Assembly (NCBI RefSeq): GCF_024298765.1
Contig: NZ_CP101211.1
Origin: Escherichia coli
GTDB lineage: Bacteria > Pseudomonadota > Gammaproteobacteria > Enterobacterales > Enterobacteriaceae
Direction: 5' to 3' (one strand)
Length of the DNA: 64,000 bases
Of the stretch, positions 33,001 through 36,000 are shown piece by piece. Numbering within the stretch: the stretch's first letter is position 1; each line of letters starts with the position of its first letter. The position numbers are program-made.

Positions 33001-36000
33001 AGCTCAACTTGAGCCGATAGTATAAACCTGGCTCCAGATGGCTTGCTGGCTGGCATAACTCCACGAGGCCGAGCCGGAACAGGACCGGAGAGCTCCTGCA
33101 CGTCACATCATCAGGATTCCCCATAAACGTACGCCGTTCTCTGGCCCGTCTGAAATTGCCAGAGATATCATAGACCGTGCCGGATGCCATCCGTCGTAAC
33201 ACGTAAATCTGTGCCATTGTAAGCTTCTGGGCGGAACTGCTTAAACCTGACATACCTTCCCCTCCTTATATAAAACAATCCGCCAGCAGCTCGACTGGCG
33301 GACAATGTTTGACTGGCAACAGCAAGGACATACTATTTAGTGACAAGTTTGATCTTGGTTTCACTCATTCGAAGTCGAAACTCCTGAAAACCCTGCTCTA
33401 CCGCTAACTCCAGCCACTCAACGGGAATGGTATAGCTACAATCAGACCCACCCAAAGCGGCATCACAAGCGTAATCCCAGTCCTCATCCAGTTTTGGATT
33501 CATCCCCTGGGCGTAAGCCACAGTATCGCGGGATGCGGGAGAGCCCTCAAGCTCAGCATTAGTGATCAGGTATACACCATGACTGTGCGCGAGAAGCACT
33601 TTTGGCACCAGATGTGTGCTGGCAATTTTTGAGGATGAGGGAAAGAAAACCCTACCAGCTTTACGCGCCTCTTCTTCAGTCTGTCCCTCAGCGTTAAGGA
33701 GGGCTCCCCCCGGATAGCATGCCGGGTCATAGATCTGATCTGCGGTGACCGAAAACGTTTTTGCGGTGCGAATTTCTTCGATCAGTTTATTAATATCCGC
33801 CATTTCAAATACGAGAGTGGTCACAGGCTTACTCTCCCTCTTCAGTGGACAACATCAGATACTTTGTTGCCAGCAGAAGCTCTCCCACATCCTTGAGGGA
33901 CAATTCAGCTTTGCCTTCTACGGCAAGCTGCAAGCGCTGTCGAATTGCATGAACAGAATCTGAAGATAAAGATGCCATTTTGCGCAAAACGGCATTAGCC
34001 TTTTCTGGTAATGACTCCAACTTATTGATAGTGTTTTATGTTCAGATAATGCCCGATGACTTTGTCATGCAGCTCCACCGATTTTGAGAACGACAGCGAC
34101 TTCCGTCCCAGCCTTGCCAGATGTTGTCTCAGATTCAGATTATGTCGCTCAATGCGCTGAGTGTAACGCTTGCTGATAACGTGCAGCTTTCCCTTCAGGC
34201 GTGATTCATACAGCGGCCAGCCATCCGTCATCCATACCACGACCTCAAAGGCCGACAGCAGGCTCAGAAGACGCTCCAGTGTGGCCAGAGTGCGTTCACC
34301 GAAAACGTGCGCCACAACTGTCCTCCGTATCCTGTCATACGCGTAAAACAGCCAGCGCTGACGTGATTTAGCACCGACGTAGCCCCACTGTTCGTCCATT
34401 TCAGCGCAGACAATCACATCACTGCCCGGTTGTATGCGCGAGGTTACCGACTGCGGCCTGAGTTTTTTAAATGGCGGAAAATCGTGTTGAGGCCAACGCC
34501 CATAATGCGGGCTGTTGCCCGGCATCCAACGCCATTCATGGCCATATCAATGATTTTCTGGTGCGTACCGGGTTGAGAAGCGGTGTAAGTGAACTGCAGT
34601 TGCCATGTTTTACGGCAGTGAGAGCAGAGATAGCGCTGATGTCCGGCGGTGCTTTTGCCGTTACGCACCACCCCGTCAGTAGCTGAACAGGAGGGACAGC
34701 TGATAGAAACAGAAGCCACTGGAGCACCTCAAAAACACCATCATACACTAAATCAGTAAGTTGGCAGCATCACCGCCTTTTCTACAGCAGGATACAGAAT
34801 TTCTGAGTTGGTATTATCTTCGTCATTATCAAAGATAATTTCAGAATCCATATTGATGTTATCTTCAAGCCAGCTTGAAAGCACTTCAAGTAATGACATC
34901 ACCTTTTCAATTTGCATATCGCCTCCTCTGTTAATGTGAAACAAATATAACAAAGTGGCTTACCCGGCTAATAACCTGAGCAGAAAGTTTTCGCACTTTG
35001 TTTGAAAACAACTTTTCTGCTCAGGTTAATGTTAAAGTCGCTGTGTAAAAGATAAAGGGCACTAAAGATGATTTAAGCATCAAACAGACTAAATCGGATT
35101 CCGTCTTTTATATCGCTTTTAAAATAGAATGAATGAAATATAAATTTAGCGTTTATGATTGAACGCTGTAGAGGTTGATTTATCCAGTGATATTCAGTTT
35201 GGGGCCTTAAAAAGGTTTTATTTTGGATTCGAATTACAAAGGGAGCACCGACATTTTTCTGGGGGCTCCCGCAGAGAAAAAGCGGTGAGGCTATGAAGAC
35301 GAAGAGGAGGTATTCGACGAAATACTGTATGGCCACAGGAGAGCTTCAGCACCCATATCCTGCCGTCTCGCTCGCCTGTAATGATTTCAACATGTACAAC
35401 GTCATACCACGTAGTTGTATTTCTCACTTTGTTTATGCTTCCTGACACCGTGTGAACGCAATCTTCGTCTGGATGCGTTCATAGATGGAAAACTGCCTTT
35501 CAATGGAACCGGCATTAGACAGTAATTCATGAAGCTCAGCAGAGTCTGTATCGGGAACGATAGCTACAGAAACTCCATATCTCCGTCCAATTTTGATTAG
35601 GTGCGCAAGCTGTTCTTTTTCGGATTCTGTGAGCATTGCCAGATCTCTTCCGGACACCTGCTCTATAAACGAACCAAGGTTTTTGGGAAAAAAGGGTTCG
35701 GCATCAGAGTTATGTGCTGGGCGCGTCTGCGGCTTATCGAAGCTATTGGGCATGAATAGAACCTATACAGTTAGAGAACTGGAGAATGGATAAAGACTCT
35801 ATGAAAATCAGTTGTGCTACACTCGAATGCTAATCAAGCTTTATGATGGCTTTAGTAGGGATGGCCGTCAACTTAAACCGATAAGAAGGGAGCCATTTAT
35901 CGTTAAAGTAACTTTCCCGGATGATGCTCTTTTTACGAAATAAGTTTCTCACACTCCTGTATAAGAGTCGCCCTGGAACGAGATCGACTGGCTTTGCTTA

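Follow-up and report, generated by a model that had tools for sequence, protein, structure and literature searches.

IS1 insertion in a DUF957-like gene paired with a DUF3085 gene on an IncHI2 plasmid backbone of Escherichia coli

We analysed a stretch of 64,000 nucleotides from Escherichia coli (contig NZ_CP101211.1 of assembly GCF_024298765.1; henceforth the window), in which a complete copy of the insertion sequence (IS) IS1 splits a small gene on the minus strand. Taken as a whole, the data are almost certainly best explained by insertion of IS1 into the DUF957-like first gene of a two-gene operon in the backbone of an IncHI2 plasmid. An initial annotation of the window had proposed that IS1, with a 9-bp duplication of its target, interrupts a gene here, and this is confirmed: the element occupies 34007-34774 and is flanked at both termini by GCCTTTTCT. 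The features of the element, of its target-site duplication and of the interrupted gene are the following.

34007-34774, minus strand (transposase genes): complete IS1 of 768 bp, lying in the same direction as the interrupted gene
34752-34774, minus strand: left inverted repeat of IS1, the insA-proximal end (GGTGATGCTGCCAACTTACTGAT)
34007-34029, plus strand: right inverted repeat of IS1 (GGTAATGACTCCAACTTATTGAT)
34444-34719, minus strand: insA, 91 amino acids (aa), with a GTG start 56 nt from the left IS1 end
34022-34525, minus strand: insB' frame, an open reading frame (ORF) of 167 aa, fused to insA via a -1 frameshift
34462-34468, minus strand: A6C (AAAAAAC) programmed -1 frameshift motif of IS1, at position 307 of the element
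33998-34006, no strand: left copy of the target-site duplication GCCTTTTCT, abutting the IS1 end
34775-34783, no strand: right copy of the target-site duplication GCCTTTTCT, abutting the IS1 end
34775-34917, minus strand: 5' fragment of the interrupted gene (nt 1-143, residues 1-48), with most of the DUF957-like core
33829-34006, minus strand: 3' fragment of the interrupted gene (residues 49-103 and the stop; nt 135-312, the duplicated 9 bp among them)
34922-34928, minus strand: ribosome-binding site GAGGAGG, 4 nt (CGAT) before the ATG at 34917

The two 9-bp copies are identical, and an independent repeat finder returned the same pair with a spacing of 777. Because other, unrelated 9-mers are also repeated by chance within the same 2.3-kb stretch, the 9-bp repeat alone is weak evidence; what we consider decisive is the exact abutment of the repeats to the IS1 termini, combined with an excision product that matches IncHI2 plasmids. 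When IS1 and one copy of the repeat were deleted in silico, the fragments joined into a single minus-strand ORF of 103 codons, and the resulting 1,024-bp reconstruction was identical at 1,024 of 1,024 positions to IncHI2A/MOBH-typed plasmids of Salmonella, E. coli and Klebsiella. The reconstructed protein equals WP_001165367.1 residue for residue and is so annotated in plasmid pSTM6-275, under the name ‘DUF957 domain-containing protein’. The initial annotation had thus been right that excision recovers a single frame, but the arithmetic it had offered (777 = 3 x 259) is irrelevant, because removing an insertion together with one copy of its duplication restores any frame. The gene of about 105 codons that it had described is likewise real but has 103 codons: the end it had placed at 34953 corresponds to an in-frame upstream TTG, which would yield 115 aa, while the ORF starts with the ATG at 34917, and both the RefSeq protein and all orthologues begin with MQI.

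Uninterrupted alleles, to which the initial annotation had pointed as a check, are found in related plasmids in great number. The gene is carried by 1,002 records of the plasmid database PLSDB; it is uninterrupted in 997 of these and at least 99% identical in 998, including the prototype plasmid R478 (NC_005211.1, 100%). These counts were made with a 327-bp query, chosen since it cannot be bridged across an IS1; we recounted in this way because in the count with the 1,024-bp query (990 of 1,004 records with at least 80% coverage) pieces may be joined across the element. The chance recurrence of 9-mers nearby could also be taken to mean that each ORF fragment is a small gene by itself and that the 9-bp repeat is coincidental. 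We regard this as next to impossible, given that the repeats abut the IS1 termini exactly, that orthologues have one 103-codon ORF, and that the excision product is 100% identical to hundreds of plasmids with one continuous annotated gene; the identity of the excised sequence and of its product (WP_001165367.1) and the uninterrupted PLSDB copies refute it.

With regard to its anatomy, the inserted element has the features by which the IS1 family is recognised: its length, imperfect terminal repeats of ~23 bp (18 of 23 positions match between GGTAATGACTCCAACTTATTGAT and GGTGATGCTGCCAACTTACTGAT), the 9-bp duplication, insA and insB' with their A6C motif, and nucleotide identity. It is the sole IS1 within the window. 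The Pfam domains Zn_ribbon_InsA and HTH_Tnp_IS1 are recorded for the insA product of a 99.97%-identical IS1 copy (locus L017), and DDE_Tnp_IS1 matches the fused 232-aa transposase product of that copy. All but the nucleotide identity are also traits of classical IS1 insertional inactivation, to which the present case is further akin in its target, i.e., the edge of an AT-rich tract within the putative operon's first gene. There is no essential difference. The isoform is ~95% identical to IS1A/IS1B, the usual plasmid copies (here compared with those in loci L002 and L003). IS1 is known to prefer AT-rich targets, and the polar mutations that it causes were originally discovered in gal and lac. 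The window's copy is 100% identical to copies annotated as ‘IS1 family transposase’ in some E. coli chromosomes and plasmids, and a copy at least 99% identical to it was present in 9 among the best-scoring 5,000 PLSDB records. Judged by these records the isoform is uncommon on plasmids, and its match to E. coli chromosomal copies fits capture of the element from an E. coli host.

Orthologues of the interrupted gene in loci L012, L013 and L008 share 74%, 65% and 52% amino-acid identity with it, respectively, and all have 103 codons with no indels. Across these orthologues the proportion of non-synonymous differences (pN) was 0.16-0.36 compared with ~0.7 for synonymous differences (pS), a clear signature of purifying selection. 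The initial annotation had allowed that an intact homologue might be found nowhere and that the reconstructed ORF might lack coding signal; the abundance of intact copies and this signature of selection dispel both doubts. The 103-aa protein is acidic (isoelectric point 4.4), with 12 aspartate or glutamate residues against 2 lysine or arginine residues in its N-terminal 48 positions, and AlphaFold2 modelled it as four helices with a mean predicted local distance difference test score (pLDDT) of 66. A Foldseek search of this model against the PDB returned generic helical bundles only (E > 0.5), from which we draw nothing, and a profile search of PDB sequences with the protein family gave no significant hit (best E 0.17). 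Scans of the 103-aa protein against Pfam, NCBIfam, PADLOC and PHROGs yielded nothing meaningful (blaBEL at E 0.011, NsnC at E 0.015 and an unnamed PHROG at E 0.11). Upstream of the gene, at ~55-110 nt from its ATG, lies a perfect 15-bp inverted repeat (TAACCTGAGCAGAAA at 34972-34986 and TTTCTGCTCAGGTTA at 35014-35028, 27 nt apart). It is situated in an AT-rich spacer and may act as an operator or form a hairpin in the transcript; the orthologous loci L012, L013 and L008 have no such repeat upstream of the gene.

Close relatives of the 103-aa protein amounted to 25 matches among 5.8 billion proteins, confined to IncHI-like elements. Searching the family profile against 1.84 billion representatives extended this to 76 proteins, most of which are 55-70 aa long and match residues ~8-57. 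Among them are the P0066 and P0050 clusters (E 3e-7 and 1.3e-8, respectively), whose members are named ‘DUF957 domain-containing’ by NCBI, and which have in common with the IncHI2 protein the motif L..L..WL(Q/E)DN(I/V).(C/M).(S/T)..IFDN(D/E)(E/D)(D/N).T.S..L(L/Y)P. Judged by this profile match and motif, the homology of the 103-aa protein to DUF957-named proteins stands. The Pfam library gave no match for the 103-aa protein, for its orthologues or for canonical 67-aa DUF957 proteins (P0066, P0104), and the negative result for the 103-aa protein is uninformative precisely because the canonical proteins get no match either. Canonical DUF957 proteins also have no precomputed Pfam entry on record, and the PF06117 (DUF957) model seems to be missing from the current Pfam copy.

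DUF957 proteins (64-67 aa) occur in CP4-like islands and plasmid leading regions, and the IncHI2 protein resembles them both in the motif at residues ~8-57 and in being carried by a mobile element. It differs from them in its length of 103 aa, with an additional C-terminal helical half of ~45 aa, and in being paired with DUF3085 rather than with DUF5983/DUF4942. The canonical context of DUF957 is the CP4-like island cluster DUF932-Antirestrict-RadC-DUF987-CbeA-CbtA-DUF5983-DUF957-DUF4942; a second context is a Salmonella plasmid in which a 164-aa DUF957-domain protein is encoded near psiA, hok, an anti-restriction gene and a relaxase gene. The literature on DUF957 that we found consists of passing mentions only. 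Separately, we observed that a distant 117-aa DUF957-like protein (P0117) adjoins a protein with DUF4165, Big_3_2 and Big_3_3 domains (L011, 1123-3579), and that the window encodes two paralogous proteins of ~805 aa with the same three domains (50575-52992 on the minus strand and 58518-60938 on the plus strand).

The partner gene lies directly downstream of the interrupted one, with 4 nt between the stop of the latter and the GTG start of the former.

33333-33824, minus strand: DUF3085 gene, 163 aa, GTG start, WP_001424592.1, with ribosome-binding site GAGGGAGAG
33278-33303, minus strand: terminator-like hairpin (stem of 10 pairs, including 6 G-C, then a T-rich tail) 30 nt past the DUF3085 stop, from a consensus scan only

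The 163-aa protein scored 39.4 bits against PF11284 (gathering cutoff 25; E 6.8e-10), covering profile positions 1-87 of 88, and is a clear member of the DUF3085 plasmid proteins. The hairpin at 33278-33303 is probably the end of the operon. A DUF3085 gene is found directly downstream of the orthologues in L012 (4-nt gap), L008 (ATGA overlap) and L013 (where it is shortened to 91 aa). The initial annotation's view that an original two-gene module, including the 163-aa gene, can be reconstructed therefore held up, and the conservation of the pairing in diverged orthologous loci indicates that the DUF957-like/DUF3085 module is real. DUF3085 is uncharacterised and has been described as the most enriched gene in broad-host-range conjugative plasmids, often adjacent to RadC (PMC12826799); by contrast, its conserved upstream partner here is the DUF957-like gene, not RadC.

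We considered whether the module could be a toxin-antitoxin pair; neither product had a relevant match in Pfam, NCBIfam, PADLOC or PHROGs. Many isolates stably carry a knock-out of the upstream gene together with an intact DUF3085 gene, but this is a weak argument against a toxin-antitoxin pair because IS polarity could silence both genes. An AlphaFold2 model of the DUF3085 protein made without an alignment had a pLDDT of 36, and a word-indexed homologue search returned too few relatives to align. Rfam had no match anywhere in the window.

The surroundings of the module point to the same replicon as the excision product. The window shows near-identity and synteny with IncHI2A/MOBH-typed plasmids including R478, and it encodes TraH, a MOBH-type TraI (TraI_2) and a coupling protein. 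We accordingly assign it to an IncHI2 plasmid backbone, an assignment based on synteny and identity. Elsewhere in the window, a 794-aa ORF (38753-41137, minus strand) occupies the position at which pSTM6-275 has a ‘phosphoadenosine phosphosulfate reductase family protein’, and has no Pfam match at E <= 1e-5. We also observed that a 93-aa IncHI2 hypothetical protein (L001, 9175-9456, with equivalents in L002 and L003) is labelled ‘Brucella suis mprF, 100% identity’ in the PLSDB resistance prediction, a label that looks like a database artefact.

Together, these data lead to the following account. A single intact IS1 has inserted itself within codons 45-48 of a backbone gene 103 codons long, making the usual 9-bp duplication; that gene is the first of a putative two-gene operon with DUF3085, and its product is acidic, is predicted to be helical and carries a DUF957-like domain near its N-terminus. 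The present 5' ORF runs to 34753, i.e., 6 codons into IS1, and encodes a 54-aa stump made of residues 1-48 followed by the IS1-encoded VMLPTY. No ribosome-binding site belongs to the 3' fragment (residues 49-103) itself, the only candidate for its start codon being a TTG within the terminus of IS1. Going by what is established for IS1, the full-length protein would be lost, leaving the stump and a C-terminal piece that may not be expressed; transcription of DUF3085 from the native promoter would be lowered by IS1 polarity; and reversion would depend on slippage between the two 9-bp copies, a rare process mediated by the host. An outward IS1 promoter directed towards DUF3085 was sought and rejected, its consensus matches being no more numerous than in shuffled sequence. 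Since the plasmid tolerates the loss, the module is presumably accessory.

Several points weigh against parts of this account. The loss of function and the polar effect on DUF3085 are both inferred from the known behaviour of IS1. With the best-conserved motif (WLEDNI...IFDNDEDNT.SE.LYP) still present, the stump may have partial activity. A consensus scan detected no promoter 5' of the interrupted gene, and for this reason the transcription unit is deduced from gene spacing. Finally, the IS1 junction is absent from 72,556 PLSDB plasmids and 5,426 complete E. coli genomes, being present in draft assemblies only. We found no evidence that contradicts the insertion itself.

In those draft assemblies the same allele recurs. 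A look-up for exact matches to the 54-aa stump retrieved P0132, an E. coli protein encoded on at least 24 contigs (40 index blocks; longest contig 274 kb). One of these loci, L017, runs collinearly with the window through the two junctions and is identical at 3,500 of 3,501 bases, and all mismatches in L017, L018 and L019 fall inside IS1. Those of L018 and L019 are concentrated at 34361-34430, a pattern that points either to gene conversion or to an assembly in which several IS1 variants were merged into one consensus. In L019, unrelated sequence follows directly past the right IS1 end (~3912 onward), and the 3' gene fragment and the DUF3085 gene are gone, a change that is a later IS1-associated deletion or rearrangement. 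Compared with the common allele, the flanks of the window's insertion have zero substitutions and the duplication is perfect. The initial annotation had called the insertion recent; this agrees with the zero divergence but leaves out that the same allele is already on those E. coli contigs, so that it represents a circulating lineage and not a one-off event. The allele is thus, by divergence, young, yet it marks an E. coli lineage in circulation.

The same gene has been disrupted independently elsewhere, as in the following plasmids and loci.

pEN30L: IS1B, 22 bp from the window's insertion site, with duplication GAATTTCTG
pSE20-C72-2-1: IS1B, in the gene's ribosome-binding site
pOkiPb01707_1: IS1A, with the gene's 5' part lost, beside a repC-floR resistance segment
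pZ1323SSL0052-2: IS5-family element in codons 15-17, with a 9-bp duplication
L021, 1501-1701: IS26-type end, joined after gene nt 143
L022, 494-2004: IS5, with a CTAA duplication at gene nt 143-146

The end in L021 is taken to be of IS26 type by comparison with the IS26 terminal repeat. The insertions in the first four plasmids lie at L003 3730-4497, L002 3853-4620, L004 ~2577 onward and L006 1299-2355, respectively, and frameshifted or chimeric products of the gene occur among the proteins retrieved (P0004, P0012-P0017 and P0022-P0025). Neighbouring genes also gather IS1 insertions and truncated variants.

This record could be read as adaptive, i.e., the gene or operon would be costly or counter-selected in some hosts, IS knock-outs would be selected repeatedly, and the IS1 lineage would have spread for that reason. 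The number of independent disruptions of one 312-bp gene (by IS1B, IS1A, IS5-family elements, IS26, IS5 and frameshifts) and the occurrence of the IS1 allele itself on at least 24 contigs speak for such selection, which we nevertheless hold to be quite improbable: the gene is uninterrupted in all but 5 of the 1,002 PLSDB plasmids and at least 99% identical in 998, the orthologues are under purifying selection, the IS1 insertions in neighbouring genes make the picture resemble a general background of IS movement in a region that is accessory and AT-rich (GC content 0.32-0.38), and hitch-hiking with a plasmid or clone that is itself successful can account for the allele's spread.

Alternatively, the site may be a structural hotspot, at which the edge of the AT-rich tract and an adjacent 10-bp hairpin attract several transposase families. 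IS1 (nt 135-143), IS26 (after nt 143) and IS5 (nt 143-146) do meet at the same nucleotide in different plasmids; a palindrome (ATGCCGTTTTGCGCAAAATGGCAT, 33972-33995) able to form the hairpin starts 3 nt downstream of the insertion site; and the GC content falls to 0.32-0.38 just upstream, in keeping with the preference of IS1 for AT-rich targets. However, that three junctions coincide was recognised post hoc, among at least 10 disruption events, for which a rough estimate gives ~0.5 such triple coincidences expected by chance; IS5 is in any case restricted to YTAR sites, and the remaining IS1 insertions are scattered (nt 113-121, the ribosome-binding site and ~nt 179). A hotspot therefore appears unlikely. 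We downgraded both selection for loss and a hotspot because only 5 of 1,002 plasmids (0.5%) are affected and the coincidence is post hoc, and retain insertion of IS1 into the DUF957-like gene as the explanation of the locus.

As a kind of event, the insertion is already known, being a textbook case of IS1 entering an annotated, widespread plasmid gene: some thousand plasmids already have the uninterrupted copy in their annotation, and this very allele can already be found among public assemblies of E. coli. In practice it can serve as a lineage marker for one IncHI2 sub-lineage and as a natural knock-out of a conserved, uncharacterised DUF957-like/DUF3085 operon. As to what the module does, analogy with the DUF957 clusters of conjugative elements hints weakly at a function in host interaction or establishment. 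A more specific proposal, that the operon is an IncHI-type host-interaction module (e.g., for establishment or anti-host-defence) related to anti-restriction/RadC clusters, is speculative, and we consider it doubtful; if it were true, the circulating E. coli IS1 allele would provide a ready-made natural knock-out with which to test it.

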